From NCBI GenBank assembly GCA_048941015.1, contig JBHLNZ010000033.1, positions 1 through 32,581 on the forward strand: DNA of 32,581 bases, given 5' to 3'. This document shows positions 1,847 through 21,413 of the stretch, one piece after another. Position 1 is the first letter of the stretch. Each line of letters opens with the position of its first letter. A program made the position numbers and the translations under genes. The notes under the pieces were generated by a model. It did no database searches. It was not told the origin of the DNA and saw only the letters and a list, made by a program, of their open reading frames with translations. This DNA is from Promethearchaeota archaeon. Its GTDB lineage: Archaea > Asgardarchaeota > Lokiarchaeia > Sigyniarchaeales > SOKP01.

Positions 1847-3757
1847 TTGGATGAGTCAATAATTTATTTAATTCAGATATTTTGCATTTTTCTACTATTT
1901 TTTTCCATTATTTCCGGATTTGGAGGTATATTTAATTATTTCTTTCAAAAATGGAGTAAAATAAAATGGAACTTATCATTGCTTGAGAATATTCTAATAT
2001 CCTTTACAATTGGAATTATTTTTTACATCCAATTCGGATATCTTCTTACATTTTTCAGAATGTTTAATTTTTTTACAGCTTATCTACCGATTATCATTTT
2101 AACTTCAATGTTCTTAATTTTTTTAATTAAAAAAAAAATAATTCAGAAGATTTTTGTATCAATCAAACATAAAATAGAATCTAATAAAAAGGATTATTTG
2201 ATTAATATTTTAATTCTTTTTGGAATATTTATTTTTCAATTTATATCTTTCTTTCCTTTTGTAAATGAAACATCCGCTTTGTTAGCGGCAGATCCTTACT
2301 ATTGGACTGAAAATGTACTTTATCTTAATAATTATGGATTAATTAACACTGAGATAATGGGACCAAAATATCCATGGGGATTTGTCATTTATTGTTCAGG
2401 TAATTTATTAGGATTTCAAGATTTTGGAATTTCATATTATTTTATGAAATTTTCATTTTTTCCTTTTATCATGATATATTCTCTAATAATGTTTTCAATT
2501 TCTCAAAGATTATTTAAAAGCAAATTTGCGACTTTTTTCTGCCTATTATTAATTATTTCACAAAGTTATTTCATATATCGCGTAATTCAATTTATTTCAT
2601 CAAGCCTTGCAATACTATTAATTTTTTTATCATTTGTTGTACTTTTAACAGATATTCCAAATTACTTTCTTGGTATAATCTTATCAACTATATTTTTAAC
2701 CAATCCAGTATATTCATTTTTTTTTATACTCGCATTGGGGATTTTCTATCTAATAAAAATGATTATTTCTTATAAGACATATAAAATCATTTTAAAAGAA
2801 ATTATTCAGGTTATGATTTTATCAATAATCTGTTTAATTGTTTATGTTTATAGTGTAATTGTAATATATAATCAGGATCTTTTTACCATTATTAAATCTT
2901 TTATCGAGGGTTTCAACACAGGACTATCTATTACTCTTTCCTCTTTTATAGGAAGTTTTCAGCCATATCAATTAATTATTATTAATATACTCTTAGAGGG
3001 CTTATATGTTATTTTTTTTTCAGTATTACCCGTTATAAGTATCATTTTTCTAATTAAAAATCGTAAAGTTACGGTTAATAATGATTTTAATTTGTTTTTG
3101 ATTATTTGTGTAATTTTAGTTGGTATTTTTGTTTTAATATTACCCCATTTTTTATACTCGCGTTTAATTTTAATTTTTTATAATAGAATTGCTGAAGCTT
3201 TTTTACCAAGTATCGTAATTTTAGCAGGATATTCATTGAGATGGTTAAGTTTACTGTTCAAGAAAATAAAAGAAAAGATAAACTTAACTTTTTTTAAAAA
3301 TAATAGGAAAACTCAGAGAAATAATTCGAAATTAAGGGATTCTAAACATTTCTACATTATAATGTGTATAGGGATATCATTATTGATGTTAAATCATTTT
3401 TATGCTCGTGAAAATGTGTATATAGATTATCGATGGGATGATTCTATTATTGATTGCATCTTTTATATTCAAAATAATATTGAAAAAGAGTCAAACATCG
3501 CAATCAATGAAAATGACGAAACTTTTTCGCCTAATAATTTGCTTTTTGATTATGAATTGTATTTAATTCCCACAAATATTAGTTTAACTTTCTCTGAATT
3601 CATAAATTTTACAGAAGGAAATTCAATCGAATATTTAGTCATAAATTTATCCTTTTATAACGAAAACTTTACCATAGAATTTCAAAATTCTACTTCATTT
3701 TACAAATTAACTAGCGGAAATCTTTCAACAGATTTTAATTTATATGAGGTTTCTTAA
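1847..3757 (+). CDS. Polytopic membrane protein, probable GT-C fold glycosyltransferase
   Basis: 636 aa with more than 12 hydrophobic segments. The loop motif ADPYYW followed by YPWG is typical of a GT-C first external loop. The C-terminal soluble domain carries several sequons. TTG start; no WWDYG motif. Confidence 0.6.
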   Translation: MDESIIYLIQIFCIFLLFFSIISGFGGIFNYFFQKWSKIKWNLSLLENILISFTIGIIFYIQFGYLLTFFRMFNFFTAYLPIIILTSMFLIFLIKKKIIQKIFVSIKHKIESNKKDYLINILILFGIFIFQFISFFPFVNETSALLAADPYYWTENVLYLNNYGLINTEIMGPKYPWGFVIYCSGNLLGFQDFGISYYFMKFSFFPFIMIYSLIMFSISQRLFKSKFATFFCLLLIISQSYFIYRVIQFISSSLAILLIFLSFVVLLTDIPNYFLGIILSTIFLTNPVYSFFFILALGIFYLIKMIISYKTYKIILKEIIQVMILSIICLIVYVYSVIVIYNQDLFTIIKSFIEGFNTGLSITLSSFIGSFQPYQLIIINILLEGLYVIFFSVLPVISIIFLIKNRKVTVNNDFNLFLIICVILVGIFVLILPHFLYSRLILIFYNRIAEAFLPSIVILAGYSLRWLSLLFKKIKEKINLTFFKNNRKTQRNNSKLRDSKHFYIIMCIGISLLMLNHFYARENVYIDYRWDDSIIDCIFYIQNNIEKESNIAINENDETFSPNNLLFDYELYLIPTNISLTFSEFINFTEGNSIEYLVINLSFYNENFTIEFQNSTSFYKLTSGNLSTDFNLYEVS

Positions 3758-3839
3758 AAATAGGATTAAACTGAAATTTAGATTAATTTTTAATTATTTC
3801 TGACTTTCTCTAATTTAAAAGACTATTCTAAAAAAAACA

Positions 3840-4943
3840 ATGTCAAAAATTATTTATTTTGTTGCTGGTGCAAGACCTAATTTCATGAAGATTGCTCCTT
3901 TAATTTCAGAGATGAAAAAAGTTAGCTTAAAATTTAAATTAATTCATACTGGTCAGCATTATGATTATAATATGTCAAAAGTCTTTTTTGACACGCTAGG
4001 AATTCCTGAACCCGATTTCCATTTGGAAGCTGGCTCTGGAAGTCATGCGGTTCAGACTGCTAAAATTATGATTGAATTTGAAAAATTATTAATGAAGGAA
4101 AAACCAATCTTAGTTGTAGTGGTTGGTGATGTTAATTCTACGATTGCATGTGCTTTAGTTGCCAAAAAATTGTTTATAGATGTAGCTCATGTTGAGGCAG
4201 GTTTAAGAAGTTTTGATACAAGTATGCCTGAAGAGCTTAATAGATTATTAACAGATCAAATTTCTGATCTTTTATTTATTACAGAGAAAAGCGCTGAAGT
4301 TAATTTAAAGAGAGAGGGAGTTGATCAAAATAAAGTATACTTTGTAGGGAATGTAATGATAGACACATTAATAAGTAATATAGAAAAATCAAAAAAATTA
4401 GACTTTTATAAGAAATTCAATATTAAAATCAAATCGTATGCTTTGGTAACAATTCATAGACCATCGAATGTTGACAATAAGGAAGATTTACTTAAGATTG
4501 TAGAAATTTTAACATATATTAGCCATAAAATTAAAGTTATCTTCCCGATTCATCCCAGAACCAAAAAAAGTCTAATTAAACATGATCTTTTAAATAAATT
4601 GGATAAGGAAAATGTTATTTTAATTGATCCTGTAGGTTATTTAGATTTTTTAAATTTAATGTATAATGCAAAATTTATTCTAACCGATTCTGGTGGTATT
4701 CAAGAAGAAGCATCATATTTGAAAATCCCAATTTTAACCATGCGTAAAAATACAGAAAGGCCAATAACCATCGAAAAAGGTACAAACACAATAGTTGGGA
4801 ATAACTTAGAAAAAATTAAAAAAAATATAGATGATATTTTTTCTAATAGTTATAAAATAGGACAAGAGATTGAAAAATGGGATGGATTTGCAGCTAAGAG
4901 AATTATAGAAATCATTAAGAAAGTATATTTTAATGAAAACTGA
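3840..4943 (+). CDS. wecB: UDP-N-acetylglucosamine 2-epimerase (non-hydrolysing)
   Basis: Motifs GARPNFMK, HTGQHYD, VGDVNST, HVEAGLRSFD..MPEELNR, TDSGGIQEEA and TERP. Confidence 0.93.
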   Translation: MSKIIYFVAGARPNFMKIAPLISEMKKVSLKFKLIHTGQHYDYNMSKVFFDTLGIPEPDFHLEAGSGSHAVQTAKIMIEFEKLLMKEKPILVVVVGDVNSTIACALVAKKLFIDVAHVEAGLRSFDTSMPEELNRLLTDQISDLLFITEKSAEVNLKREGVDQNKVYFVGNVMIDTLISNIEKSKKLDFYKKFNIKIKSYALVTIHRPSNVDNKEDLLKIVEILTYISHKIKVIFPIHPRTKKSLIKHDLLNKLDKENVILIDPVGYLDFLNLMYNAKFILTDSGGIQEEASYLKIPILTMRKNTERPITIEKGTNTIVGNNLEKIKKNIDDIFSNSYKIGQEIEKWDGFAAKRIIEIIKKVYFNEN

Positions 4944-4993
4944 ATTGATTGGACTCAATTATAAATTTATCATAGTCATTATAGGTAATCAAT

Positions 4994-6217
4994 ATGAAAT
5001 TACAACTCGAAAAATATTCCTTTGTTAGAAAAAGTAAATTTTATCGCTTTTTCAGAGATATAATATTTCCTTTTGGTTTGAAAATCATTTCAAAAGTATT
5101 TAGCGATAAAATTGACGAGAAACTAATAATTATGGGAGGATATGGGGGAAATATTTATCTTGATAACACTAAGTATCTTTTTGAGTATCTTAATCAAATT
5201 TCAGATTATAAAGTTGTGTGGGTTGCAAAATCAAGGAAATTAGTAAAAGAACTTAAGCGAAAAGGGTATAATGCGATTCATATGTTAAATTTTATAACAA
5301 TTAAATGGCTAAGAAAAGCAAAATTTATTTTTTTTACCCATGGTATTTATGATGTTCTACCAATTGAATTTTCACCAAAAACAACCATTGTCCTGACATG
5401 GCATGGGACTCCGATAAAGAAAATAATTTTTGATGAAGATCTTGAATTTTTAACCTATACAAAATGGGGAAAGTATTTTAGATTAAAATTGAGATATAAC
5501 GATTATCTTAATTATATTCTAACTCCAACTAGAGATGAAAATGAGCATAGAATTTTAAGCTCAGCATTTAAAGTGCCAATTGACAAAATTCTCGCTTTAG
5601 GTTATCCGAGAAATGATATTTTATTTAATGAAGACAAAAATTTTATTAATGATTTAAAACAAAAATATCAAATTCCAGAGGATATTGAACGTGTAATATT
5701 ATATTGCCCTACTTTTAGGGATGATCATTCTTTAATGTTCTCAATTTCAATGAAAGATTTAAATGAATTAGAAAAATTGCTACGAGAAAAAAAATTACTT
5801 TTTCTATTAAAAGGGCATTATTTCATCCAAAATGTGAACTTTGATGAATATAAAAATATTAAAATAGTCCCTAAAGAGTCGGATATTCAAGAACTATACA
5901 TAATAACTGATATTCTTATCACAGATTATTCTTCAACAATGTTAGATTTTTCTTTATTGAATAGACCAATTTTACTATTTCCTTATGATTTTGATGAATA
6001 TAAAAAAGTTAGAGGGATGTATTATAATTTAGAAGATATTGCACCTGGACCATTAATCTTTACATTCCAAGAGCTTATCAATAATATTAGAGATATCGAG
6101 GATATTAATAAAAAATATGAGCAGAAACGCAATCTAATTAAAGAACGTTTCAATAAATATCTAGATGGTAAAACTAGTGAAAGAATTTTAGATTTTTTTA
6201 ATATAAGAAAAAGATAG
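4994..6217 (+). CDS. CDP-glycerol glycerophosphotransferase family protein (TagB/TagF-like); candidate phosphonyl transferase
   Basis: Motifs TWHGTPIKK, GYPRND, LYCPTFRD, ITDYSS.MLDF, FPYD..EY...RG.Y and DGKTSERI. It lies directly upstream of pepM. Confidence 0.9.
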   Translation: MKLQLEKYSFVRKSKFYRFFRDIIFPFGLKIISKVFSDKIDEKLIIMGGYGGNIYLDNTKYLFEYLNQISDYKVVWVAKSRKLVKELKRKGYNAIHMLNFITIKWLRKAKFIFFTHGIYDVLPIEFSPKTTIVLTWHGTPIKKIIFDEDLEFLTYTKWGKYFRLKLRYNDYLNYILTPTRDENEHRILSSAFKVPIDKILALGYPRNDILFNEDKNFINDLKQKYQIPEDIERVILYCPTFRDDHSLMFSISMKDLNELEKLLREKKLLFLLKGHYFIQNVNFDEYKNIKIVPKESDIQELYIITDILITDYSSTMLDFSLLNRPILLFPYDFDEYKKVRGMYYNLEDIAPGPLIFTFQELINNIRDIEDINKKYEQKRNLIKERFNKYLDGKTSERILDFFNIRKR

Positions 6218-6292
6218 TAGTTCTCAAGATTTAACTTTTCAAACCATCAATTAATCCCATTCAATATTTCCAACCAAAATTTTAAATAAAAG

Positions 6293-6302
6293 TTTTATAA
6301 AA
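6293..6302 (+). promoter_or_regulatory. Candidate archaeal TATA box for the phosphonate operon
   Basis: TTTTATAAAA preceded by purine-rich AATAAAAG, about 27-36 nt upstream of the pepM ATG. The AT-rich background makes this weak. Confidence 0.3.
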
Positions 6303-6328
6303 TAGAAATTTCCATTTTAATAGAAAAG

Positions 6329-8023
6329 ATGAGTTTAAAAAATAGAATTTCTCCCGAAGAAAGAAGAAAGTTATTAAAACGTTTACTTGAGCAAAAAAAA
6401 TTTATTAGAGCAATTGAAGCCCATAATGGTTTAAGTGCAATCATCGCAAATAATATTCATATAAAAGAAGGAAATGAAATTTACGAATTTGATGCTATTT
6501 GGGAGAGTAGCTTGACGGATAGTGCCGCAAAGGGATATCCCGATGCGGATATAATAGGTCCTGAATCAAGATATAACACAATTAGAGAGATTATCCATAG
6601 TTCAACAAAACCATTAATTGTTGATGGGGATACTGGTGGAGATGCTACCAGTTTTGAATATTTTGTAAGAGCCTTAGAAGATATGGGAGTCTCAATGGTA
6701 ATAATTGAAGATAAGACTTTTCCTAAAAGGAATAGTTTAGATCCTAAGTCTAAGCAAACTCAGGAGGATCCAAATACATTCACCGTAAAAATAGAAAGGG
6801 GTAAAAGTGTTCAATTATCTACTGAGTTTATGATCGCCGCCAGAATTGAAAGTTTTATCTCCGGAGCAGGTTTAGAAGATGCAATCTTTAGAGCTAAAAA
6901 GTATTTAAATGCGGGAGCTGATGCTATTATGATTCATTCTAAAAAAGATAATGCTGAAGATATCTTTAATTTTGCGCAAGAATATCATAAACTTTTAGAT
7001 GAATTAGAAGTGAAAAAACCTTTAATATGTGTTCCGACAACATATAATACCGTTTATGAAAATCAACTAAGAGAAAAGGGCTTCAATATTGTTATTTATG
7101 CAAATCATTTATTACGCGCAGCACATAAAGTAATGCGAGAAACAGCTTTAAATATTTTGAAAAGTAAAAGAGCATTCGAAGCAGAATCCTTATGTACTCC
7201 TATAAATACGATTTTTGAAGACGTGGGTTTTATTGAGGTAAGAGAAAAAGATTTAAAATATAAGAGAGGAAAAATTCGTACTATTATCCCTGCTGCGGGT
7301 AAAGATATCAATTTTGATATACCAAAAGCTTTAATAAAAATTAAAGGGAAAGAAATTTTATTAAGGCAGAAAGACAACTTGAAAAATTGTGGTATTGAAG
7401 ATATTACAGTTATTAAAGGATACAAGAAAGAACTAATCAATCTTGAAGGATTTAAATATATTATTAATAATGATTATGAAGATACTCATATATTACATTC
7501 TTTATTTAAAGCTGAAGAAGACATGGTCAATGGATTTATATATTTAAACTCTGATATCTTATTTGACCAACAAGTCATTGAAAATCTTTTAAATGTTAAA
7601 CATGACATTGTTTTAGTAGTTGATAATTCATATACATACCATAAACATGATTTAGATAAAAAACTTGATTTAGTTTTAGCAAAAAATAAACCTAGTGCAG
7701 AACATAGAATGCTGCATTTAAAGGAAAATGAAGCAATACGAATTGGAAAGACTATCGATAAAAATATGGCAGATTATGAATATGTTGGAATTGCTTACTT
7801 TTCTGAATATGGAGCGAATATTATACGGAAAATTTATCATGAATCTAAGATGAGCCATATGGGAAGGTTTCACGAAGCAGAATCATTTGAAAAAGCTTCA
7901 TTTACTGATTTTATTCAAGAAGTGATTGATCGAGGATTTAGAGTTAGTTTGTTGGAAGTTCATAAAGGATGGTATGAAATACATAATAAAAAAGATGTTG
8001 AAATAGTTGAAAAGCTATTTTAA
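6329..8023 (+). CDS. pepM: Phosphoenolpyruvate mutase fused to a C-terminal nucleotidyltransferase (PntC/LicC-like) domain
   Basis: Diagnostic EDKxxxxxNS motif (EDKTFPKRNS) plus EAHNGLSA, VDGDTGG, ARIES, GADAIMIHS, VPTTY and VIYANHLLRA. The C-terminal NTP-transferase fold starts at about aa 316 (IIPAAG...PKALI, GYKKE, SDILF, GWYEIH). Confidence 0.96.
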   Translation: MSLKNRISPEERRKLLKRLLEQKKFIRAIEAHNGLSAIIANNIHIKEGNEIYEFDAIWESSLTDSAAKGYPDADIIGPESRYNTIREIIHSSTKPLIVDGDTGGDATSFEYFVRALEDMGVSMVIIEDKTFPKRNSLDPKSKQTQEDPNTFTVKIERGKSVQLSTEFMIAARIESFISGAGLEDAIFRAKKYLNAGADAIMIHSKKDNAEDIFNFAQEYHKLLDELEVKKPLICVPTTYNTVYENQLREKGFNIVIYANHLLRAAHKVMRETALNILKSKRAFEAESLCTPINTIFEDVGFIEVREKDLKYKRGKIRTIIPAAGKDINFDIPKALIKIKGKEILLRQKDNLKNCGIEDITVIKGYKKELINLEGFKYIINNDYEDTHILHSLFKAEEDMVNGFIYLNSDILFDQQVIENLLNVKHDIVLVVDNSYTYHKHDLDKKLDLVLAKNKPSAEHRMLHLKENEAIRIGKTIDKNMADYEYVGIAYFSEYGANIIRKIYHESKMSHMGRFHEAESFEKASFTDFIQEVIDRGFRVSLLEVHKGWYEIHNKKDVEIVEKLF

Positions 8024-8059
8024 GAATAACTTAAATGTAATTTAATTGTTTAAATTTTA

Positions 8060-9208
8060 TTGAATCTAAGAATGTTAGAATATATTGGTTATAATTCCAT
8101 TCAAAAGTTAAAGAAAATTCTTAAAAATAATAATTTCAAAAAGATTTTTTTAGTTACAGGAAGGAAATCATTTGAGCAAGATGAAATCAAGCAAATTATT
8201 CTCAAATTAATAGATGGATATGACTATTATCATTTTAATGATTTTACACCAAATCCAAATATTTTAGATGTAAAAAAAGGATTAGACATTATACATCAGG
8301 AAAATTTTGATGTTATTGTAGCTATAGGAGGGGGTTCTGTAATTGATATGGCTAAATCAATTTCATTATTATCAAAAAATAATGAACCCCCAGAAAAAAT
8401 AATTAAGAAGGAAGTAAAAATAACTAATAGAGGAATTCCGTTAATAAGGATTCCTACAACAGCTGGTTCTGGCAGCGAAGCAACTCACTTTGCCGTAGTT
8501 TATATTGGGAAAACAAAGTACTCCTTGGCTGATAAGGATTTTATGATGCCAGATTTTGTCATAGTTGATCCTCAATTTACGTTAACATTACCAAAGAAGA
8601 TAACAGCAGATACCGGTATGGATGCACTAAGTCAAGCAATAGAATCTTTCTGGAATACCTATTCTACAAAAGAATCTAAAAATTATTCAAAAAAAGCAAT
8701 TGAGTTGATTATATCTAATTTAGTTAAATCAGTGAACCAACCAACAAGAAAATCAAGATATAATATGGCAATAGCAGCTAATTATGCTGGTAAAGCAATC
8801 AATATTACTAAAACAACCGCTTGTCATGCAATATCCTATCCAATAACCTCATATTTCAACATTCCTCATGGGCATGCTGTTGCTTTAACTTTACCTTCCA
8901 TGATTGTTTTTAATTCAGAGGTTAATCAAAACGATGTTTTAGACCCAAGAGGAGTGAAGTTTGTAAAATCTGAGATGAATAAACTAATTTCTATTATTGG
9001 AGTTTCTGAATTTCAAGAAGCTGAAGAAAAGATTATCAATATTATGAAACAGATCAATTTAGAAACTAAGTTAAGTGAATTGGGGATTAATTCATCAGAA
9101 GATATTGATATTATAATTAGAAATGGATTTACCCCAAATCGAGTAAAAAATAATCCCCGATTATTGACAGAACTTCAACTCAGAAAGATTCTGGAGGGAA
9201 TTAAATGA
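8060..9208 (+). CDS. phpC: Phosphonoacetaldehyde reductase (group III iron-containing alcohol dehydrogenase, HEP-forming)
   Basis: Motifs GGGSVIDMAK, IPTTAGSGSEATHFAV, DALSQAIES, TTACHAISYPIT...IPHGHAVA and R.KNNPR. It sits between pepM and ppd. The start is TTG 8060 or ATG 8072. Confidence 0.85.
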   Translation: MNLRMLEYIGYNSIQKLKKILKNNNFKKIFLVTGRKSFEQDEIKQIILKLIDGYDYYHFNDFTPNPNILDVKKGLDIIHQENFDVIVAIGGGSVIDMAKSISLLSKNNEPPEKIIKKEVKITNRGIPLIRIPTTAGSGSEATHFAVVYIGKTKYSLADKDFMMPDFVIVDPQFTLTLPKKITADTGMDALSQAIESFWNTYSTKESKNYSKKAIELIISNLVKSVNQPTRKSRYNMAIAANYAGKAINITKTTACHAISYPITSYFNIPHGHAVALTLPSMIVFNSEVNQNDVLDPRGVKFVKSEMNKLISIIGVSEFQEAEEKIINIMKQINLETKLSELGINSSEDIDIIIRNGFTPNRVKNNPRLLTELQLRKILEGIK

Positions 9209-9921
9209 AAGTTATTATCTTAAATGCGGGAATTGGAAAAAGATTTGGAGATCTAACTAAAAATAAACCAAAATGTCTCATTAAGATAACTAAAAAAGAA
9301 ACCATATTAGATCTTCAATTAAAAACTTTAATTGAGTGTAATTTTATAGATATAGTTATGTTAACTGGTCCTTTTGAAGATATGATAAAGAATCATGTGA
9401 ATGAGAATTACCCGATTTTGAATGTACAATATATACAAAATCCAATTTATAATCAAACAAATTATATATATTCTATTTATCTACTTAAAGATATTATTAA
9501 TGATGCCATAATATTATTACATGGAGATTTAATTTTTACCAAAAAAGTATTGGAACAAATAATTAATTCTGAAGAAAAGAACTGTGTAATTGTAAATAAA
9601 GAAATTTCAATTCCCAGAAAAGATTTTAAAGCATTAATAGTTAATGAAAAAATAATAAGAATAGGAGTCGACATTTTTGAACCTAATAGTGCATTTTTAG
9701 CGCCTTTATACAAATTATCAAAACAATTTTTTAGAACTTGGCTTAATAAAATTGAAAAATTTATAGAGCAGAATAAAGTAAATTGCTATGCTGAAGATGC
9801 TTTAAATGAGATATTATACAAATTAGATTTAAAACCGATTTATATTAACGATATTAATTGCATGGAAATTGATGATTTTAATGATTTAGAGAGAATTAAA
9901 AAATATTTTATTGAAAAGTGA
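9205..9921 (+). CDS. Phosphocholine/phosphonate cytidylyltransferase (LicC/PntC-like)
   Basis: Motifs NAGIGKRFGDLTKNKPKCL, NPIYNQTNYIYS, LHGDLIF, YAEDALN and EIDDFNDL. It has an ATGA overlap with the upstream reductase. Confidence 0.85.
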   Translation: MKVIILNAGIGKRFGDLTKNKPKCLIKITKKETILDLQLKTLIECNFIDIVMLTGPFEDMIKNHVNENYPILNVQYIQNPIYNQTNYIYSIYLLKDIINDAIILLHGDLIFTKKVLEQIINSEEKNCVIVNKEISIPRKDFKALIVNEKIIRIGVDIFEPNSAFLAPLYKLSKQFFRTWLNKIEKFIEQNKVNCYAEDALNEILYKLDLKPIYINDINCMEIDDFNDLERIKKYFIEK

Positions 9922-9948
9922 AAAATTGAATAAATTGAGCTAACTCTT

Positions 9949-11085
9949 ATGATTTTATGTCAAGAATTTTTTGAAATTTTAAAGGAAAAAGGATTTTCTT
10001 TTTTTACTGGAATTCCTGATTCCACTTTTAAGGAATGGATCAAATTTATTATAGATAACGATGGTGGAGTTTTAAAACATATCATAGCATGTAATGAATG
10101 TGAGGCAATTGCTTTAGCTGCTGGCTACCATTTAGCAACTAAAAAAATAGGTGTTGTTTATATGCAAAATTCTGGTCTTGGTAAGACAGTAAACCCCCTT
10201 ACTTCTCTATGTGATCCTGATGTTTATTCTATACCTATTCTTTTAATGATAGGATGGCGTGGAGAGCCTGAGACAAAAGATGCTCCACAACATAAGAAAA
10301 TGGGAAGAATAACCTTATCATTATTAGATACACTTCAAATTCCCTATAGTATAATAGAACAAAATATTGAAAAGATTAGGTTAGAACTTAATAAAGTATT
10401 ACAGTATTTTAAAAATAAAAAAGGGCCTTATGCTTTTATCATACGACCTAACTTATTCCAAAAATATGATGCAAAAGTGAAAAAAGATAATGATTACATT
10501 ATAACAAGAGAAGAAGCAATTAATTTGATAATGGATAATTTAGATGGTAATGAAATTATTGTATCTACTACGGGATATACTTCTAGAGAATTATTTGAAT
10601 ATCGAGAATCAAGAAAAAAGAACCACCATCTAAGTTTTTATAATATTGGATCTATGGGTTGCGCTAGCTCAATTGGTCTTAGTATAGCACTGGAAAAACC
10701 GAATACAAAAGTTATCGTTTTTGATGGGGATGCAGCGGCTATTATGCAAATGGGTGCATTTACTACGATTGGTAAATATAAACCTTCTAATTTTACACAT
10801 ATTATATTTGATAATAGTGCTCATGAATCTACTGGGGGTCAGCCCACAAATTCAAATTCTTCTGACTTATTACAAATTGCACTTTCTTGTAATTATAAAT
10901 TTGGATTATATATTAAAAACATAAGTGAATTGAATAATTCGATTAAATTTATTAAAAAATCAGAAGGTCCTATTATTTTAATCATTAAAATAAAGCAGGG
11001 TTCAAGATCTAATTTGAAGAGACCTGAAAAGGATCCAAAAGATTATAAAGAACTTTTTATGAGTCATCTTACAAGCTTAAAATAA
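9949..11085 (+). CDS. aepY: Phosphonopyruvate decarboxylase (ThDP-dependent)
   Basis: Motifs GIPDS, YMQNSGLG..VNPLTSL, IGWRGEP...DAPQH, STTGYTSRELF, GSMGCASSIGL and the ThDP motif FDGDAA...FDNSAHESTGGQP. Confidence 0.95.
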   Translation: MILCQEFFEILKEKGFSFFTGIPDSTFKEWIKFIIDNDGGVLKHIIACNECEAIALAAGYHLATKKIGVVYMQNSGLGKTVNPLTSLCDPDVYSIPILLMIGWRGEPETKDAPQHKKMGRITLSLLDTLQIPYSIIEQNIEKIRLELNKVLQYFKNKKGPYAFIIRPNLFQKYDAKVKKDNDYIITREEAINLIMDNLDGNEIIVSTTGYTSRELFEYRESRKKNHHLSFYNIGSMGCASSIGLSIALEKPNTKVIVFDGDAAAIMQMGAFTTIGKYKPSNFTHIIFDNSAHESTGGQPTNSNSSDLLQIALSCNYKFGLYIKNISELNNSIKFIKKSEGPIILIIKIKQGSRSNLKRPEKDPKDYKELFMSHLTSLK

Positions 11086-11118
11086 TTATTACTTAACTAA
11101 GTATATGGTTTATTAAAT

Positions 11119-12375
11119 ATGGTTAAAGAGATATTATTTTTATCTTATCATTTCGCACCTTATAGTAAAATCTTAAGTATTAGAGCTGCTGAATTTGCAA
11201 AAAGATTAATTCAATTAGGTTATAAAATTTTTGTTGTTAGGGCTAAAGTTAATAAAAATGCTTTAAAAGATGGGAAACTCTTAGAGAAGGTTGATTCTCC
11301 CTTAATAGAAAATCATCCTGTTTTTAATTTAAGTTTCTCTAAAGAAGGAATACAATCTAATTTAAAGAAGGTCACACCAAATCTGGATATTATTAATTTT
11401 CTTCTATTTTTTCATTGGATCCCTCTTGCTTTTTTGACATGTCGCAAGCTGATAAAAAGAAATAACATTAGGTTAATTTATGCCTCAGCACCCCCTTTTT
11501 TTACCTTATTACTGGGATTTTTATTAAAAAAGATCTATAAAATTCCATTGATTATTGAATATAGAGACCCTTGGTCTTATAATCCATATTTAGAAGAGAC
11601 TGCAAAGACTTTTATTGATAAAACTTATTTAAAAATAGAAAAAAAAATTCTTAAATCAGCTGATTCTATTATTTGTATTAGTGATGGAATGAAACAATTT
11701 TTAATTGAGAAGTTCCCAGATCAATTAAAAAATAAAGATCTTAAAGTGATTCCTCATGGTGTTAATTTTGAAGAGATAAGTCAAATAGCTTTAAAGAAAA
11801 AACTAGAAAATGAGATAATTATTACATTTACAGGCAATTTATATGGATTAAGAAATCTCAAACCTTTAATAAAGATAATTTCTAGCTCTAAAAAATTTGG
11901 AAAATTAGATGGGATTTCACTAAAAATCAAAATTTTTGGCCGATATGATTCCGGTTATCTAGAAAATCTAATCAAAAAATATGATGTTATTGAATATTTT
12001 AATTTACAAGGATTTGTACCACGCGATATGTGTTTTGAAGAAGTATATAATTCTTCATTAGCTCTACATGTAGGAGAAGATCTGAATTATCCTACCTTAA
12101 GTTTTAAAGTTCTCGAATATTTGAGTATGAGAAAAAAAATTATGTATTTAGGAAAAGAAGATTCATACACAGCGAAATTTTTGGAAGAAAATGACATGGG
12201 ATTTACAATCCCTATTAATGATTTTAATGCGGGATTAAATAAGTTTGGACTTTTAATCGAAAAAATTAAGTCAAAACAAATTAGTTTAGAAATTTTACCC
12301 AATAAATTAAAAAGTCTCACTTGGGATAAGAATTCAAACGAATTAGCAGACATTTTTAAAAAATTTTTTAATTAA
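11119..12375 (+). CDS. Glycosyltransferase family 4 (GT-B)
   Basis: Motifs SYHFAP, SAPPF, EYRDPW, IPHGVN, FTGNLYG.R and K..EYL. Confidence 0.85.
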   Translation: MVKEILFLSYHFAPYSKILSIRAAEFAKRLIQLGYKIFVVRAKVNKNALKDGKLLEKVDSPLIENHPVFNLSFSKEGIQSNLKKVTPNLDIINFLLFFHWIPLAFLTCRKLIKRNNIRLIYASAPPFFTLLLGFLLKKIYKIPLIIEYRDPWSYNPYLEETAKTFIDKTYLKIEKKILKSADSIICISDGMKQFLIEKFPDQLKNKDLKVIPHGVNFEEISQIALKKKLENEIIITFTGNLYGLRNLKPLIKIISSSKKFGKLDGISLKIKIFGRYDSGYLENLIKKYDVIEYFNLQGFVPRDMCFEEVYNSSLALHVGEDLNYPTLSFKVLEYLSMRKKIMYLGKEDSYTAKFLEENDMGFTIPINDFNAGLNKFGLLIEKIKSKQISLEILPNKLKSLTWDKNSNELADIFKKFFN

Positions 12376-12413
12376 AAAGAGATATTCAATTATATTGTTA
12401 TCGAAAATATTCT

Positions 12414-14453
12414 ATGATGAATATACATAATTTAATGGTTAAACTTAAAAGGATATCATATTTCAAATTAATTAATTATTATAAGCCATATATTATAAAA
12501 AAAATATATTCGCTTTTTCTAAATAAACGAAAGCTATATTTAATCAATTCATATGTATCAGATAATTTAGTAAAACGTTATTTTGGGAAAGATTTGAATT
12601 TTGAAAAGCTTAGAAGCGCTTTTTTTGATACAGATATATTTAAATATTCAAATACAGATGAAATTACGATTTTATTAGAATATCTTAAAAAAAACAGTCA
12701 AGACGAGTTAGATACATATATTGAGCAAGCAAATAGACTATGTTATAATAAAGTTCCAATTTTTGAAAAAGAATATCATTTTGAAAAAAATTTCGATTGG
12801 TTTTATGGCTTTACAGATGACTTTTATTGGAAGTTCGAAAGATCCGATAAAATCGAGATTAGACCTAAATATAAGGATGAATTTATAGACATAAAATTGG
12901 TTTGGGAATTAAACAGACACCAATTCCTGCAAATTTTAGGTATAGCATATCTAATTACTAAACAAGAAAAATATGCGATAAGATTTAAAGAGATTATTTT
13001 AGATTGGATAAAAAAAAATCCTCCCTTGTATGGTGTAAATTGGATATCTGGGTTAGAAATCTCATTAAGATTGATTTCTTGGATATTAAGTTTATATTTC
13101 TTCAAGGGATCGATTAATATTAATAACAAAAGGTTTTTCGCTAAGATTTTTAAATCTATGTTTCAACACGCTTACTTCCTCAGAAATTTTTATACTAAAC
13201 GTTCATTTAATCATACTATTGGAGATATGTGTGGCGCATATTTATTCTCTAAGATTTTTAATGGAAATTCAAAAATAATAAAATGGCAAAAAAAATTCTC
13301 GCAGGAAATAATTAAAAATATAAAGCTTCAAATCAGGCCTGATGGAGTTAATATAGAACAATCGCTTAATTATCATAAATTTGTTTTAGAATTTTTTTCT
13401 CTTTTTCTTATAATAAGTCCTGAATTAATACATGAGCCAGAAAAAGCACTTATTGCAAAAATGTTTGAATATTTGTTTTATTCCATTAAACCAAATCATA
13501 AATTCCCTCTAATTGGAGATTCTGATGAGGGAAGAGCCTTGTTTCTCAGTAATAAGGGACATAAAGGCTTTTTAGAATTATTAAGTTTAGGATCAGTTTT
13601 ATTTCGTAACAAAGGAATAAAATATCTTACAAATCACCCTGCTATAATTACAGTTTTCTTGTTAGGAATTAAAGGTATTGAGGACTTTAATAAATTAGAA
13701 TCAATTGAATCAAATGTAAATTTTAAATTTTTCGAAAATTCTGGATATTTTATAATTAGAAATAATTGGAAGAAAAATGGAAATTATCTTTTTGTAGATT
13801 TTGGAAGATTTGGTCCACAGAATGCTCCACATTCTCATAGTGACATTACTAATATTATCTTTTCTTATAAGGGTAAGGACATCTTAATTGATTCTGGGAC
13901 TTATTCTTATAATAGATCTTGGGAGGAGAGATCTCATTTTAGAAGTAGTGTTGCTCATAATATTATATCAATTAATCACAACAATCAAGCAAAAATAGAA
14001 GGTTGGTTTAGTTGGGCTAATAAACCAAAGTTAAAGAGGAAAGTAAATAAAATTGAGTCTAATTTTGAGTTATGCTGTATACATAATGGTTATAAAGGTT
14101 TTTTAGTGAAAAGAGTAATTAATACTAATAAAAGTGTAGATGAAATAATAATTACGGATAAGATATTTTATAAAAACGAAGCAAAAGATGAAGAACCCCA
14201 CGATGTTGATTTGTTTTTTCATTTTAACAATGATATTGATCTTAAAATGAATCAAAATACTGTACAGATTGATAATAATTTATTATTAACTATTTCATCT
14301 GATAATGATTTTTCTATGAAAATTAATAAAACATATTTTTCTCCAATATATAGTCAGAAATGTGAAATTAAAGTTCTAAATATTCATTTAAATCATAATT
14401 TTAAATTTAAAAACAGTCTTCAAATAATATCAAAAATCAAGTCTATAGAATAA
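12414..14453 (+). CDS. Heparinase II/III-like (alginate lyase superfamily) protein
   Basis: Motifs KLVWELNRHQ, WIKKNPP..GVNW.SGLE.SLR, NH, DG..IEQSLNYH, IGDSD.G, HSHSD, DSGTYSY and RSS.AHN. No signal peptide is evident. Confidence 0.88.
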   Translation: MMNIHNLMVKLKRISYFKLINYYKPYIIKKIYSLFLNKRKLYLINSYVSDNLVKRYFGKDLNFEKLRSAFFDTDIFKYSNTDEITILLEYLKKNSQDELDTYIEQANRLCYNKVPIFEKEYHFEKNFDWFYGFTDDFYWKFERSDKIEIRPKYKDEFIDIKLVWELNRHQFLQILGIAYLITKQEKYAIRFKEIILDWIKKNPPLYGVNWISGLEISLRLISWILSLYFFKGSININNKRFFAKIFKSMFQHAYFLRNFYTKRSFNHTIGDMCGAYLFSKIFNGNSKIIKWQKKFSQEIIKNIKLQIRPDGVNIEQSLNYHKFVLEFFSLFLIISPELIHEPEKALIAKMFEYLFYSIKPNHKFPLIGDSDEGRALFLSNKGHKGFLELLSLGSVLFRNKGIKYLTNHPAIITVFLLGIKGIEDFNKLESIESNVNFKFFENSGYFIIRNNWKKNGNYLFVDFGRFGPQNAPHSHSDITNIIFSYKGKDILIDSGTYSYNRSWEERSHFRSSVAHNIISINHNNQAKIEGWFSWANKPKLKRKVNKIESNFELCCIHNGYKGFLVKRVINTNKSVDEIIITDKIFYKNEAKDEEPHDVDLFFHFNNDIDLKMNQNTVQIDNNLLLTISSDNDFSMKINKTYFSPIYSQKCEIKVLNIHLNHNFKFKNSLQIISKIKSIE

Positions 14454-14562
14454 TAGATAATTTTAATCAATAAATTTTACTAAAATATATTATTTAATTG
14501 ATATTCTATAAACTATAACTTTTCTCAATTGTTTTCCCAATTATTTTTAAGGTTATGAAAAA

Positions 14563-16743
14563 ATGAAAAAATTGTATATTAATCCAAGAGGTAAAGTTAT
14601 TTTACAAAAAGCAAGAGAACCTCAATTAGAAACAAAAGGTGTAATAGTTGACACTAAATATGCGTTAATTAGCTCTGGAACTGAACTATCTATAATTAAA
14701 TGGAAAAAAACAATGAATTTACCAATATATAAGCAGATTATTAAATCAAAATATCTTAGAAAACGAATAATGTCAGAATTTAAAAAGAATACATTAAGAG
14801 GGTTGTTCAAATTATTTAAAACTTATAAAGAAAGGGGTAGTTTTAAGAATTATGTTAATCCTTCTCATAATCTGACACCAATAGGTTATAGCTGTTCAGG
14901 TGTTGTTAAAGATTCAAACATAAAAGAATTTAAAGTTGGTGAAAAAGTAGCTTGTGGTGGATCTCATCATGCTGAAAGGTTATTTTCATCTAAAAATTTA
15001 ACAGCGAAAATACCTGAAAATGTGAGTTTCGAAGAAGCAGCATTTGCAACTTTGGGAGCGATTGCTTTACATGGTAGTCACCGTGCAGAAATTAACCAAG
15101 GTGAGAATATTGGGATAATTGGAACTGGATTAATTGGATTGATTGTTGTCCAACTAGCTAAAATTTCTGGAGCAAAAGTATTCGCTCTCGATTTAATTAA
15201 TAAGAGATTAAACTTAGCAAAAAAATTGGGAGCAGATATTATTATAAATCCTTATTATCATAACTCCAAACTAATTATTGATAAGTATACCGAAGCAAAA
15301 GGTTTAGATTCTATAATCATTTGCGCATCATCGAAGTCTAATAAACCATTGGAGGATGCTGTTGAATTAATACGTGATAAGGGGAAAATTGTTATGCTTG
15401 GTGCTTTTCCTATAAGTATTGACAGAAATAAAATATATTATAAAGAAACAGATTTATTAATCTCGCGTTCTTATGGACCAGGGCGGTATGATCCATATTA
15501 TGAGCATGAAGGATTCGATTATCCGGAAAGATATGTGCCTTGGACAGAAAAGAGAAATATGGAAATGTTTTTAAACCTAATCTCTGAGGGCAAACTAAAC
15601 GTAAAATCTTTAATTTCTGATATTGTTCCTGCTGAGTTAGCAAATAGCGCATATGAAAAATTAGACTCGGATCAAATAAATAATATAGCAATCTTATTGA
15701 GTTTTAATCAAGAAGAGACTTTACAAATTGATAATTATCATATGAAAGCGAGTGAAGCAGTCCAAAAGAAGTGTATAGTAGGATTAATAGGTTGTGGTTC
15801 TTTTGCACAAGGAACTCATCTTCCAATACTTTTAAGCAATAAGTTTTGTAAAATAAAAGCAATATCGACCAATTCTCAGAAAACTGCGGATTTCTGCCGA
15901 CGCACCTATAATCCAGAGTATACCACTACAAATTATAAAAAAATATTGAAAGATCCCGAAATTGATTTAGTATTTATTTATACGAGACATGATTTACACG
16001 CAAAAATTACAATTGATGCTATTCAAGCAGGGAAAAATGTATTTGTTGAAAAACCTATGGGAATAACTTTAGAAGAATGTCAAAAAGTATACGATATAGT
16101 AAAAAACTCTCAAAAAAATTATCAAATAGGTTTTAATCGAAGATATAGTCCTTTTATTAAAATATGTAAAGATTTGTTGCAAAATCGTCAAAATCCGATA
16201 ATTATTAATTATCGAATATCTAGTCAATTTATTCCAGGAAGTTATTGGGTATTTGATCCTGAAATAGGAGGAGGTCCAATTATTGGAGAAATGTGCCATT
16301 TTGTTGATTTGGTATTATACTTAATGAATTCAAATCCAACTGAGGTGATTGCGTATGGAGGTTATATGAGCCATAAAAACACAGAAGTATATGATAGCTG
16401 TGTAGCCTTAATAGAATTTGAGAATGGAGCTATAGCTAATCTTATATATACCGATTTAAATGGCCCAAATATGCCAAAAGAACGTATTGAAATCTATTCT
16501 GGTGATTCAGCAATAATAATTGATGATTTTAAATTTATGAACACTAGTGGTTTTGATGTTGGAAATTACAAGCTTAATACACAGGATAAAGGTCATAAAA
16601 ATGAGATAGCCAATATAATTTCTCTAAATTTAGGTCTGAAAGATCCGCTGGTAGGAGTAGATGATGCGATGAAAGCAATGGATCTTATATTTAAAATAAT
16701 TGAATCTATTAAAACAAGAAAAGCTATTAAAATAAATAAGTAA
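14563..16743 (+). CDS. Bi-domain oxidoreductase (MDR-type dehydrogenase plus Gfo/Idh/MocA domain)
   Basis: N-domain motifs ISSGTEL, GYSCSG, AFATLGAIALHG, IGTGLIG and SRSYGPGRYDP.YE. C-domain motifs IGCGSFA, VFVEKP, GFNRRYSP and GGG.IIGE.CHFVD. Confidence 0.9.
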   Translation: MKKLYINPRGKVILQKAREPQLETKGVIVDTKYALISSGTELSIIKWKKTMNLPIYKQIIKSKYLRKRIMSEFKKNTLRGLFKLFKTYKERGSFKNYVNPSHNLTPIGYSCSGVVKDSNIKEFKVGEKVACGGSHHAERLFSSKNLTAKIPENVSFEEAAFATLGAIALHGSHRAEINQGENIGIIGTGLIGLIVVQLAKISGAKVFALDLINKRLNLAKKLGADIIINPYYHNSKLIIDKYTEAKGLDSIIICASSKSNKPLEDAVELIRDKGKIVMLGAFPISIDRNKIYYKETDLLISRSYGPGRYDPYYEHEGFDYPERYVPWTEKRNMEMFLNLISEGKLNVKSLISDIVPAELANSAYEKLDSDQINNIAILLSFNQEETLQIDNYHMKASEAVQKKCIVGLIGCGSFAQGTHLPILLSNKFCKIKAISTNSQKTADFCRRTYNPEYTTTNYKKILKDPEIDLVFIYTRHDLHAKITIDAIQAGKNVFVEKPMGITLEECQKVYDIVKNSQKNYQIGFNRRYSPFIKICKDLLQNRQNPIIINYRISSQFIPGSYWVFDPEIGGGPIIGEMCHFVDLVLYLMNSNPTEVIAYGGYMSHKNTEVYDSCVALIEFENGAIANLIYTDLNGPNMPKERIEIYSGDSAIIIDDFKFMNTSGFDVGNYKLNTQDKGHKNEIANIISLNLGLKDPLVGVDDAMKAMDLIFKIIESIKTRKAIKINK

Positions 16744-16772
16744 TAAAAAATGTAAAGAAATATTAAACGCCG

Positions 16773-19772: not shown

Positions 19773-21413
19773 TTATAATATTTTTTTCAACATTTTTAAT
19801 ATTTTTTGAATAATCCTATGTTGTATTTTATCAGAAGTGAGTAGTGTTTCCAATGCTTCAATTTCTTTGGGTGAAAATATCTTAATAAGTCGATTTAAAA
19901 GAAGAAAAATTATTAAAAAAGAGATTAATGACATTATCTGCAAATTCTGAAAAAATAATAGATTTAGATTTAGAAGAATTTGAAGTCGTAGTGTTTTAAA
20001 TAGGAATTCTTCTAAAATCACAGCAATTACTAAAGATATGAAAAAATTAATATACTGGTAAAATATTTTATTAAGTTTTATTTTAACATCTCCAATTTTA
20101 ATACTTAAAAATAATTGAATTAAAAAGACTATGATATTGGATAATATCATACCAAAAATCGCCCCGATTATACCGTAAAATATAATTCCAATAAAGAATA
20201 AACTTATAATAATAATTAAGTTAATAATCGTTAAAATTGGAAGAATTTTAACTTTATTTTTTGCATTTAATAATGGAATTAAGATATTTCCTAAAACTGT
20301 GAAAATTACACTGATTAAATATAATTTAACGATACTAGAATAGATCAGATATGAATTTCCATATACGATTACAAGAAAAAAATCAGTTAAAATAAATAAT
20401 GAACCAGAAATTAATAACATTAAAAATAAGGAATATTTGAAAGTCATATTATAAATTTGATTAATTTGATCTTTTTCATTTTTAACATCCAAAGTAGAAA
20501 AGGATGTAATAAGTGGATTGGAAAAAGAAGATGCTGCAGTCAAAGAGATATGAGAATAATATTTAGATAGAGTAAATCCTGTTATAACGCTAAGAGGTTC
20601 AAATTCTTCTATTATAGGTGCTTGAAATTGTTTCCAGATTTCATTTAAAAATGAACTAACACTTAATGGAGTTCCATATTTTGATAATTTAGAAAGAGTT
20701 CTTTTGAAAGATACTTTTGTTTCATTAGAATATTTTATATTTATATAGAGTTTTAAGAAAAGCAGAAGACTATACAAAAATGGAATTATATATGAGATTA
20801 AATTTACTAAAGCAATAATTTCGAGATTTTTTATTCCAAATATCAAACAAATTATAAGAGCGAAGATATTAAAAGAAAACTTTAATATGGTTAGGAAAAA
20901 AATCAGTTTATATCTTGAAAAACCCTGATAAATGGAATCCAATAAAGAATTTAAACCAATTATTATAATAAGTGGTGATAATAAGAATAATATATGGGTA
21001 TAGTTTTGTAAACTTTCAGAAAAAAAAGAATGCAATATAGAAAAGATTAATACACTTATAGAAAATATTATCAACGAGAATAAGGATTTTATATAAAATG
21101 CTACCTTTATAATGCTTTTTAATTTATAATTTTTATTCAAGGTAATGTATCTTGGAATATAATAATTTACTGAAAAAGTTAAGGCTGGTGGAAAAAAGGT
21201 TAAAATTAATGAAATAATGTTAATATAGGTTAAAGCAAGGATTAAAATGCCCCATATCTCTTGCGAAATTAATCTAGCAATAAAAAAAGACACAATAATT
21301 TGGAAGATAAATATTCCATAATTGTTGAATAATGAATAGATTGCATTCTTAGCAAATTTTCGGTGTTCAATACGAATGTTTTTCCCACTCCAATTTTCTT
21401 CTGAACGCTTCAT
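19773..21413 (-). CDS. Oligosaccharide flippase (Wzx/MOP superfamily)
   Basis: About 14 hydrophobic segments; N-terminal FAKNAIYS...FIARLISQEIWGI; KYGTPL; located inside a glycan locus. Confidence 0.85.
   Translation of the reverse strand: MKRSEENWSGKNIRIEHRKFAKNAIYSLFNNYGIFIFQIIVSFFIARLISQEIWGILILALTYINIISLILTFFPPALTFSVNYYIPRYITLNKNYKLKSIIKVAFYIKSLFSLIIFSISVLIFSILHSFFSESLQNYTHILFLLSPLIIIIGLNSLLDSIYQGFSRYKLIFFLTILKFSFNIFALIICLIFGIKNLEIIALVNLISYIIPFLYSLLLFLKLYINIKYSNETKVSFKRTLSKLSKYGTPLSVSSFLNEIWKQFQAPIIEEFEPLSVITGFTLSKYYSHISLTAASSFSNPLITSFSTLDVKNEKDQINQIYNMTFKYSLFLMLLISGSLFILTDFFLVIVYGNSYLIYSSIVKLYLISVIFTVLGNILIPLLNAKNKVKILPILTIINLIIIISLFFIGIIFYGIIGAIFGMILSNIIVFLIQLFLSIKIGDVKIKLNKIFYQYINFFISLVIAVILEEFLFKTLRLQILLNLNLLFFQNLQIMSLISFLIIFLLLNRLIKIFSPKEIEALETLLTSDKIQHRIIQKILKMLKKIL

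Follow-up and report, generated by a model that had tools for sequence, protein, structure and literature searches.

The window analysed here is the whole 32.6-kb contig C81 (32,581 nucleotides) of a 3.59-Mb metagenome-assembled genome (MAG) of an uncultured Asgard archaeon, and it carries a five-gene phosphonate cassette (4994-11085) amid genes of surface-glycan assembly. We consider it probable, at about 0.7, that the encoded enzymes make 2-hydroxyethylphosphonate (HEP), activate it as CMP-HEP and put it on a surface glycan. In the proposed pathway, phosphoenolpyruvate mutase (PepM) would convert phosphoenolpyruvate (PEP) to phosphonopyruvate, and phosphonopyruvate decarboxylase (Ppd) would pull the reaction on to phosphonoacetaldehyde, which an iron-dependent alcohol dehydrogenase (Fe-ADH) of the PhpC type would convert to HEP. 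A standalone LicC/PntC-like nucleotidyltransferase (NTase) would form CMP-HEP from HEP and CTP, and, with CMP-HEP as donor, the soluble TagF-like enzyme encoded next to the other four would place the HEP-phosphonyl group on a hydroxyl of the lipid-linked glycan that the neighbouring glycosyltransferases (GTs) assemble, before that glycan is flipped outwards. The window would hold the 'make' allele of a surface-glycan locus that is variable in Asgard archaea. Gene identities, diagnostic residues, the strict co-occurrence of genes, and the interchangeability of the branch enzyme and of the cassette itself were computed as described below.

Core enzymes of the cassette

Open reading frames and matches to Pfam and NCBIfam gave the same five co-oriented genes, with the same domains, as a preliminary description of this DNA. 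They are separated, in order, by gaps of 111, 36, -4 and 27 bp:

4994..6217, + strand: TagF/TarF-like transferase, 407 aa, no transmembrane (TM) segments; Pfam Glyphos_transf 266.8 bits (gathering threshold 22.1; model positions 10-364 of 367)
6329..8023, + strand: PEP mutase with C-terminal NTase-like domain; PEP_mutase 173.6 bits, NTP_transf_3 28.3 bits; TIGR02320
8060..9208, + strand: Fe-ADH (group III Fe/Zn ADH), candidate of the PhpC type; Fe-ADH 144.6 bits, ADH_Fe_C 122.9 bits
9205..9921, + strand: standalone LicC/PntC-like NTase, 238 aa, overlapping the Fe-ADH stop by 4 bp; NTP_transferase 42.4 bits
9949..11085, + strand: phosphonopyruvate decarboxylase (Ppd/AepY); TIGR03297; TPP_enzyme_N and TPP_enzyme_C

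PepM scored 336.8 bits against TIGR02320 (338.9 bits in the genome-wide search), above the equivalog cutoff of 319.55, and carries EDKTFPKRNS at residues 127-136 of the fusion, which fits the EDKxxxxxNS motif that sets Ppm apart from the rest of the isocitrate-lyase superfamily (PMC6697681). The PepM domain (residues ~16-297) is followed by the NTase-like domain (residues ~315-564) that matches NTP_transf_3, in agreement with the earlier description of a PepM fused to an NTase. A search of the host MAG found no second pepM. Ppd scored 440.5 bits against TIGR03297 (cutoff 312.5), and both of its TPP-binding domains are present.

The branch-point enzyme

The identity of the product as HEP hinges on that of the Fe-ADH, and four independent lines support this protein as a putative PhpC-type phosphonoacetaldehyde reductase that would make HEP. 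A set of 1294 plasmid records with an Fe-ADH match was used for comparison with bacteria. The two best homologues of the 1294 (41.5% and 38.5% identity) are annotated as phosphonoacetaldehyde reductase and directly follow aepX-aepY, in Fulvitalea axinellae and Segatella copri, while the next in rank are generic Fe-ADHs at no more than 32%. The best PDB match was 6jko/6jkp (E 3.7e-42), a sulfoacetaldehyde reductase named as the closest homologue of PhpC in a 2026 study (PMC13576164). According to that study, a Tyr at +4 from the third metal ligand is strictly conserved in PhpC (Tyr264 in P. fungorum) and is replaced by Phe in sulfoacetaldehyde reductases. In a ligand-anchored alignment the window Fe-ADH has His256/Tyr260 (HAISYP) against His261/Phe265 (HACSFP) in 6jko, and the diagnostic Tyr is invariant in 13 of 13 aligned pepM-linked Fe-ADHs, which come from both Asgard cassette types and two Bacteroidota. 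The metal ligands of the window enzyme are D188/Q192/H256/H270. PhpC has Asp/His/His/His as metal ligands and a cationic clamp of Lys157 and Arg349 (PMC13576164); Lys153 and Arg367 (NPR) of the window protein are conserved and are candidates for such a clamp.

Linkage to pepM was assessed in 135 genomes of the host family. Fe-ADH orthologues at 57% identity or more were present in 27 of them; 25 adjoin pepM, and the other two are fragments on short contigs. One of these fragments lies in G215, in which pepM was not found, and the other 26 orthologue-bearing genomes are pepM-positive. All remaining Fe-ADHs of the family are at most 37% identical to the window protein. In genus g11 of the same family, a homologous cassette keeps the PepM-NTase fusion, Ppd and NTase and has an aminotransferase for 2-aminoethylphosphonate (AEP; 437-442 bits against a cutoff of 360.8) with no Fe-ADH, so that either of the two known branch-point enzymes can occupy the one cassette frame.

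The preliminary description had reported no AEP transaminase in the window. None is present there, and the search for an aepZ elsewhere yielded none above cutoff in the 95%-complete MAG, the best match reaching 175 bits against 360.8. This match, a class-V aminotransferase on contig C126, was rejected as an AEP transaminase, being most similar to BhcA-like proteins and having similar sub-cutoff counterparts in 14 of 14 control genomes. HAD-family matches were likewise rejected as the phosphonatase PhnX (52 bits against a cutoff of 220), and a search of the MAG for the C-P lyase PhnJ gave no match. The single pepM of the MAG, and the lack in it of any AEP aminotransferase, phosphonatase or C-P lyase above cutoff, make a catabolic or an AEP-forming function of the cassette unlikely.

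It could be envisaged that HEP is only an intermediate and that the surface group is another phosphonate, formed from HEP for example by methylation or through oxidation by an enzyme of the MpnS/HEPD type from another part of the genome. Two methyltransferase genes in the window would fit this, as would a methyltransferase that follows the cassette of Promethearchaeum syntrophicum MK-D1, an archaeon of the same order as the host and of a different family. However, methyltransferases are not conserved beside the cassette and are more likely sugar O-methyltransferases, no oxygenase or radical S-adenosylmethionine (SAM) gene is conserved with the cassette among the 20 wider Asgard loci compared, and the adduct mass in MK-D1 considered below fits unmodified HEP. 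Both MpnS and HEPD require O2, and the hosts come from sediments. We regard further conversion of HEP as distinctly unlikely, and take HEP itself as the predicted product.

Two nucleotidyltransferases

The standalone NTase has a canonical NAGIGKRF...KPK sequence (signature G-x-G-x-R...P-K) and matches LicC (1jyk, E 4.3e-9) and Treponema denticola PntC (6pd1, E 2.8e-8). Its identity to the NTase domain (PF12804) at the N-terminus of the S. copri AepX triple fusion is 40.7%. Among HEP-type cassettes it is 45-77% identical, and 28-32% identical to the NTase of the AEP-type cassettes of the host family. The PepM-fused domain, in contrast, reads AAGKDINFD-IPK, and an alignment of six fused homologues revealed that the signature Arg is lost, that a loop is shortened by 5 residues and that about 10 residues are inserted. 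The insertion (near YHKH..DKKLDLVL) is itself conserved, and the domain (window 7271-8020) is 57-77% conserved in every fusion of the window type (type A below) and 57-59% identical between HEP and AEP cassettes. Its nearest solved relative is LicC (E 3e-7), and standalone paralogues of it retain the GxGxR motif.

Since the fused domain has lost the Arg and five loop residues and its sequence does not follow the HEP/AEP branch, we favour the standalone NTase as the activating enzyme and likely HEP cytidylyltransferase. The fused domain may be non-catalytic or repurposed.

Host and distribution of the cassette

The host MAG (144 contigs; 95% complete) contains the archaeal ribosomal protein S28e and lacks the bacterial L20, the markers used for taxonomy. 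Together with the composition of the contig, its homologues and the glycan genes on either side of the cassette, this agrees with the earlier suggestion of a probably archaeal surface-glycan locus. A misbinned bacterial contig would have to be considered: the bin has 5.1% estimated contamination, a search of it for rRNA genes found none, and C81 carries glycan genes only, with no phylogenetic markers. Against this, C81 falls inside the range of the bin both in GC content (27.0%; genome 29.4%) and in tetranucleotide profile, the nearest named homologues of the PepM fusion (55-78% identity) are all from Promethearchaeota or other Asgard MAGs, and the best bacterial homologues in the plasmid collection are just 38-46% identical. 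In the host family, about 30 genomes have orthologous cassettes (57-78% identity), on contigs that reach 700 kb, and two closed Asgard genomes have related ones. A bacterial origin of the contig is thus improbable to the point of being nearly negligible, and the cassette also occurs outside this contig.

In a second sediment sample, contigs with identity above 99% run across epimerase/TagF-like, TagF-like/PepM/Fe-ADH/NTase and Ppd/GT4 and thereby bridge the joints between cassette and flanks. Some short joints in these contigs, with sides of just 20-27 letters in AT-rich DNA, were treated as spurious. Metagenomes of sediment and of mangrove, from three studies or more, contain near-identical DNA.

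A survey of synteny across archaeal genomes, covering 400 species-level genomes of the phylum, found pepM cassettes in about 43 (11%). Type A, with a fusion like that of the window, occurs in about 31 genomes, nearly all of the host family, and is patchy, being present in 8 of 42 genomes of the host genus (9 of 42 with a congener that has the other PepM type). Type B, with an N-terminal CTP_transf_like domain on PepM as in Fom1, occurs in 12 genomes, including both closed ones. Ppd, the Tyr-bearing Fe-ADH and the PntC-like NTase are retained in most type-A and type-B cassettes, with the three AEP-type genomes of g11 and the type-B loci L064 and L067 as exceptions. In L064 (G013:C15, 7034-8846), the type-B PepM lies next to a gene that resembles glycerol-1-phosphate dehydrogenase (223 bits, below cutoff) and is paired with a divergent NTase and two genes of the LicD type; this set may represent a polyol-phosphate branch in a similar locus.

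The neighbour of the cassette also varies. A TagF-like gene is found in g1, g2 and g11, and a LicD-like gene in several lineages. The HEP cassettes of g12 (L053-L057) have no TagF-like gene and are accompanied by a major facilitator superfamily (MFS) transporter of the GlpT/PgtP type, an intact paralogue of the fused NTase and a protein of ~501 aa with a sulfatase/alkaline-phosphatase fold, which is a possible alternative phosphonyl transferase. In L062, from a closed 6.04-Mb genome, the HEP cassette is likewise flanked by an MFS transporter and an NTase paralogue.

The TagF-like protein and proposed make and import alleles

In NCBIfam the TagF-like protein falls below the equivalog cutoffs of TarF, its best match (200.4 bits against 550), TarL (91 against 1000) and TarB (74 against 500) and, as judged by these scores, is a member of the family and not an orthologue of a characterised teichoic-acid enzyme. 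The catalytic motifs of TagF/TarF enzymes are the His of WHG, PTxR, a second His and TDYSS; the corresponding motifs here are TWHG (135-137), CPTFR (PTFR 239-242), KGHYF (~273-277) and ITDYSS (TDYSS 310-314). Five of the six orthologues at 60% identity or more adjoin pepM, and a TagF-like gene lies beside the cassette in five of the five closest loci. The AEP-type loci L058 (G170:C10) and L059 (G175:C313) of g11 have two to four TagF-like genes around them, one of which encodes ~815 aa with two TagF domains.

Three congeners without pepM (G248, G260 and G238) share the locus backbone of the pepM-positive genomes. In one of them (L070, G248:C119), identity to the window is 54% for the TagF-like protein, 56% for the GT4, 59% for the heparinase-like protein and 73% for the ADH_zinc_N/GFO fusion; the gene for a 12-TM protein also matches, and the flanks align with the window at the DNA level. 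Between the TagF-like and GT4 genes, the four biosynthetic genes of the window (6329-11085) are replaced in each by an intact NTase paralogue and an MFS transporter:

L070, 5516-7768: NTase paralogue and MFS transporter
L068, 5756-7846: NTase paralogue and MFS transporter
L069, 5927-8027: NTase paralogue and MFS transporter

The NTase of this import allele is 33-35% identical to the fused domain and has an intact GxxxR...PK motif, and the transporter (429-436 aa) is of the organophosphate:phosphate-antiporter type (GlpT/PgtP-like); a search of the host MAG showed that this transporter is absent there. On the simplest reading, the TagF-like enzyme would use a CMP- or CDP-activated phosph(on)o-alcohol that is either made, as in the window, or imported and activated, as in the sister allele. 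The compound taken up may be HEP or one such as glycerol phosphate. The retention of the TagF-like gene when the cassette is swapped supports it as the transferase of the module. We infer its donor specificity and acceptor, as we do the role of the fused domain and every enzymatic activity of the cassette, from sequence, and we hold its assignment as the HEP transferase with lower confidence than the formation, activation and surface placement of HEP.

The same alleles bear on a different division of labour, in which HEP is made and CMP-activated, but what the TagF-like enzyme transfers is an ordinary polyol phosphate, for instance glycerol phosphate. HEP would then be attached by another enzyme of the locus, such as the AP-superfamily protein at 21721-23055, or would go to a lipid in place of a glycan. 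The pairing of the TagF-like gene with an intact NTase and a GlpT-like transporter in pepM-negative genomes fits uptake of glycerol-3-phosphate, synthesis of CDP-glycerol and transfer of glycerol phosphate, TarF is the best NCBIfam match of the enzyme, and other Asgard cassettes have LicD-like or sulfatase-fold neighbours in place of it. However, this arrangement is unlikely in view of the linkage of the closest TagF-like orthologues to pepM, the lack of a glycerol-phosphate-forming gene in the window, the direct association of a TagF-family gene with HEP genes in S. copri, and the presence of the transporter and NTase paralogue of g12 inside a HEP cassette locus, which suggests one shared pathway.

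A further variant, which we consider very doubtful, is that the TagF-like enzyme builds a poly(2-hydroxyethylphosphonate) chain on the glycan, from monomers that are made or scavenged through a GlpT-like transporter. It is conceivable because TagF-family enzymes are typically polymerases and because HEP keeps a free primary hydroxyl after esterification of its phosphonyl group, so that CMP-HEP could serve as a monomer with two reactive ends. If true, the product would be a phosphatase-proof 'phosphono-teichoic acid', a class of biopolymer not yet described.

Gene neighbourhood

The cassette belongs to a run of eleven co-directional genes (1847-17552), spaced by -4 to 111 bp. Besides the cassette, the contig encodes two UDP-GlcNAc 2-epimerases, GTs of families GT4, GT1 and GT2, a Wzx-like flippase, methyltransferases, sugar enzymes of the RmlD/epimerase type and an AP-superfamily protein. 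The features outside the cassette are:

1847..3757, + strand: membrane protein of 636 aa with 12 TM-like segments, encoded first in the co-directional run; matches neither Pfam nor NCBIfam
3840..4943, + strand: UDP-GlcNAc 2-epimerase (sugar precursor); Pfam Epimerase_2 358.9 bits
11119..17552, + strand: downstream glycan genes assigned with Pfam, namely GT4, heparinase II/III-like, ADH_zinc_N+GFO/IDH/MocA fusion and an unknown 259-aa protein
18922-19764 and 23063-24361: two SAM methyltransferase genes
19773..21413, - strand: Polysacc_synt (Wzx-like) flippase, 11 TM-like segments; Pfam PF01943 36.5 bits

The 12-TM protein has an orthologue of 40-41% identity at the equivalent position in L003/L048 and L070 and is a candidate glycan polymerase (Wzy-like) or ligase. 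The downstream block is conserved alongside the cassette at L003/L048 and alongside the import allele at L070. Its fusion of ADH_zinc_N and GFO/IDH/MocA oxidoreductase (14563-16743, + strand, 726 aa) is 67-73% conserved in relatives. A second fusion (27013-28401, + strand, 462 aa) joins an NAD-dependent epimerase/dehydratase to a dTDP-sugar isomerase/FdtA-like cupin, and the AP-superfamily (Phosphodiest) protein at 21721-23055 (+ strand) is soluble/cytosolic and has no specific family assignment.

This setting bears on whether the cassette could make a diffusible, antibiotic-like phosphonate and not a surface decoration. The series PepM, Ppd, PhpC and cytidylyltransferase corresponds to the early fosfomycin steps Fom1/Fom2/FomC (PMC6697681), and surveys of the antiSMASH type list archaeal 'phosphonate BGCs' (biosynthetic gene clusters; PMC11051675). 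However, tailoring enzymes typical of phosphonate antibiotics are lacking, and in several lineages the cassette lies amid GT, flippase and epimerase genes with a phosphotransferase adjoining. A diffusible product is highly improbable, and we retain attachment of HEP to the glycan as the predicted outcome.

A related cassette and an unexplained glycan residue in MK-D1

The closed genome of MK-D1 (G143) carries a type-B cassette with a Tyr-bearing Fe-ADH (L063, C1:1146200-1166000), flanked by a small SAM methyltransferase, a pyridoxal-phosphate enzyme, a leucine-rich-repeat protein and a thermosome subunit, with no obvious glycan locus. The N-glycans of this organism were reported as 304.13-Pen-Hex-HexNAc (801.30 Da) and 304.13-Pen-Hex-311.08 (909.30 Da), the 311.08 unit matching no structure (Nakagawa et al. 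2024, PMC11284389), and this unit was found again when the data were re-analysed independently (bioRxiv 10.64898/2026.04.15.718822). The mass computed for N-acetylhexosamine (HexNAc) plus HEP minus water, 311.0770 Da, matches this residue, and its assignment as HexNAc+HEP is suggestive. AEP, phosphate, phosphoethanolamine and glycerol phosphate on HexNAc were rejected, as their masses do not fit; an isethionyl ester (311.0675 Da) or isobaric C2H5O3P esters are possible.

Discussion

The preliminary description had drawn a route from PEP through HEP and CMP-HEP to a glycan ester. The diagnostic Tyr of the Fe-ADH, its coupling to pepM and its exchange for AEP aminotransferase support this route, with the amendment that the fused NTase is not likely to be the cytidylyltransferase. 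Several points weigh against it. The second metal ligand of the Fe-ADH, Gln192, is as in sulfoacetaldehyde reductase (SarD), in contrast to the His of P. fungorum PhpC, and the NCBIfam scores of the protein stay below every equivalog cutoff. The proposed route does not account for the presence of two NTase units in the module. MpnS is absent from the window and is not conserved with the Asgard cassettes, these being the limits of the search, as no genome-wide one was made for MpnS or HEPD. Homologues of the TagF-like protein at 45-58% identity occur in pepM-negative genomes, so that the family is not phosphonate-specific, and we found no report of a TagF-family enzyme that uses a CMP-phosphonate. 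In MK-D1, the flanks of the cassette contain no TagF-like or LicD gene and its architecture is of the other type, and mass alone does not separate HEP from isobaric C2H5O3P esters.

It had also been suggested that a HEP-glycan in an Asgard-like host would be new, and this goes too far: HEP phosphonoglycans are known in Actinobacteria, CMP-HEP and PepM-NTase fusions have been published, and Segatella (Prevotella) copri DSM 18205 (NZ_CP085933.1) has an equivalent module. There, an aepX triple fusion, aepY, a phosphonoacetaldehyde reductase and a CDP-glycerol glycerophosphotransferase-family gene are followed by a polymerase, a flippase and GTs in a capsule-type locus. The two systems are alike in Ppd (43% identity), in the PhpC-type reductase (39%), in a PntC-like NTase unit (41% to the standalone NTase) and in having a TagF-family gene in a glycan locus. 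The S. copri system differs in its bacterial host and in carrying both NTase units N-terminally on PepM (PF12804 and PF01467, the second Fom1-like), and the TagF-like proteins of the two are 27% identical. The S. copri locus is annotated, with no experimental study as far as we could find.

The bacterial Pnt pathway (Ppm-Ppd-AEPT-PntC with a LicD-like enzyme, where AEPT is AEP aminotransferase; Rice et al. 2019, PMC6697681) resembles the window in that a phosphonate is made, CMP-activated by a LicC-like NTase and moved to a surface glycan, and the window has the features by which Pnt clusters are recognised in that study, a Ppm and a nucleotidyltransferase in the cluster with surface-glycan genes nearby. 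In contrast, the characterised PntCs prefer AEP, and the window has the PhpC branch, no AEPT, a TagF-like instead of a LicD-like enzyme and an archaeal host. PepM-PF12804 fusions account for 32.9% of Ppm, and nucleotidyl activation is the rule in bacterial phosphonate tailoring (PMC6697681), with the PhpC/HEP branch in 8.5% of bacterial ppm neighbourhoods (PMC8942020). The early steps of fosfomycin biosynthesis by Fom1 (CyTase-PepM, the enzyme that forms CMP-HEP), Fom2 (Ppd) and FomC (PhpC-type), in the part of the pathway as it is cited in PMC6697681, share the chemistry to CMP-HEP, and the N-terminal CTP_transf_like-PepM fusion of Fom1 is a feature of the type-B Asgard cassettes, including that of MK-D1. 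The window differs in lacking Fom3/Fom4-type tailoring genes, in the C-terminal PF12804-like domain of its PepM and in a predicted product that goes to a glycan and not to an antibiotic.

The HEP phosphonoglycans of Glycomyces sp. and Stackebrandtia nassauensis, both actinobacterial exopolysaccharides and cited in PMC8942020 and PMC8931226, are the only isolated HEP-glycan conjugates, and the former paper gives the isolation of a HEP conjugate from the Stackebrandtia exopolysaccharide. In 2014, Yu et al. are reported to have found HEP ester-linked to a hexose in a glycan that carries O-methylated sugars; the window also encodes methyltransferases. Among archaea, a product has been isolated for one phosphonate pathway only (PMC8942020), that of Nitrosopumilus maritimus (PepM, Ppd, Fe-ADH and MpnS). 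Up to HEP it takes the PepM, Ppd and PhpC steps proposed for the window, but it continues through the O2-dependent MpnS to methylphosphonate. Cold-seep surveys merely count 'phosphonate BGCs' in six archaeal phyla (PMC11051675), and within the searchable literature we found no paper that describes a HEP pathway in Asgard archaea. Only the host lineage appears to be undescribed, and the window is a new host lineage with a mildly variant architecture of a known bacterial system.

The pairs of make and import alleles and of HEP and AEP cassettes could serve as natural controls when functions are assigned to the TagF-like protein and to both NTases. The prediction is testable in culture, as MK-D1 has a related cassette and an unexplained glycopeptide residue of the mass of HexNAc+HEP. 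If it is true, part of the Asgard lineage would, like some bacteria, have a surface coat with a C-P group that resists hydrolysis, and sediment Asgard archaea would be a source of hydroxyethylphosphonate in marine organic matter.

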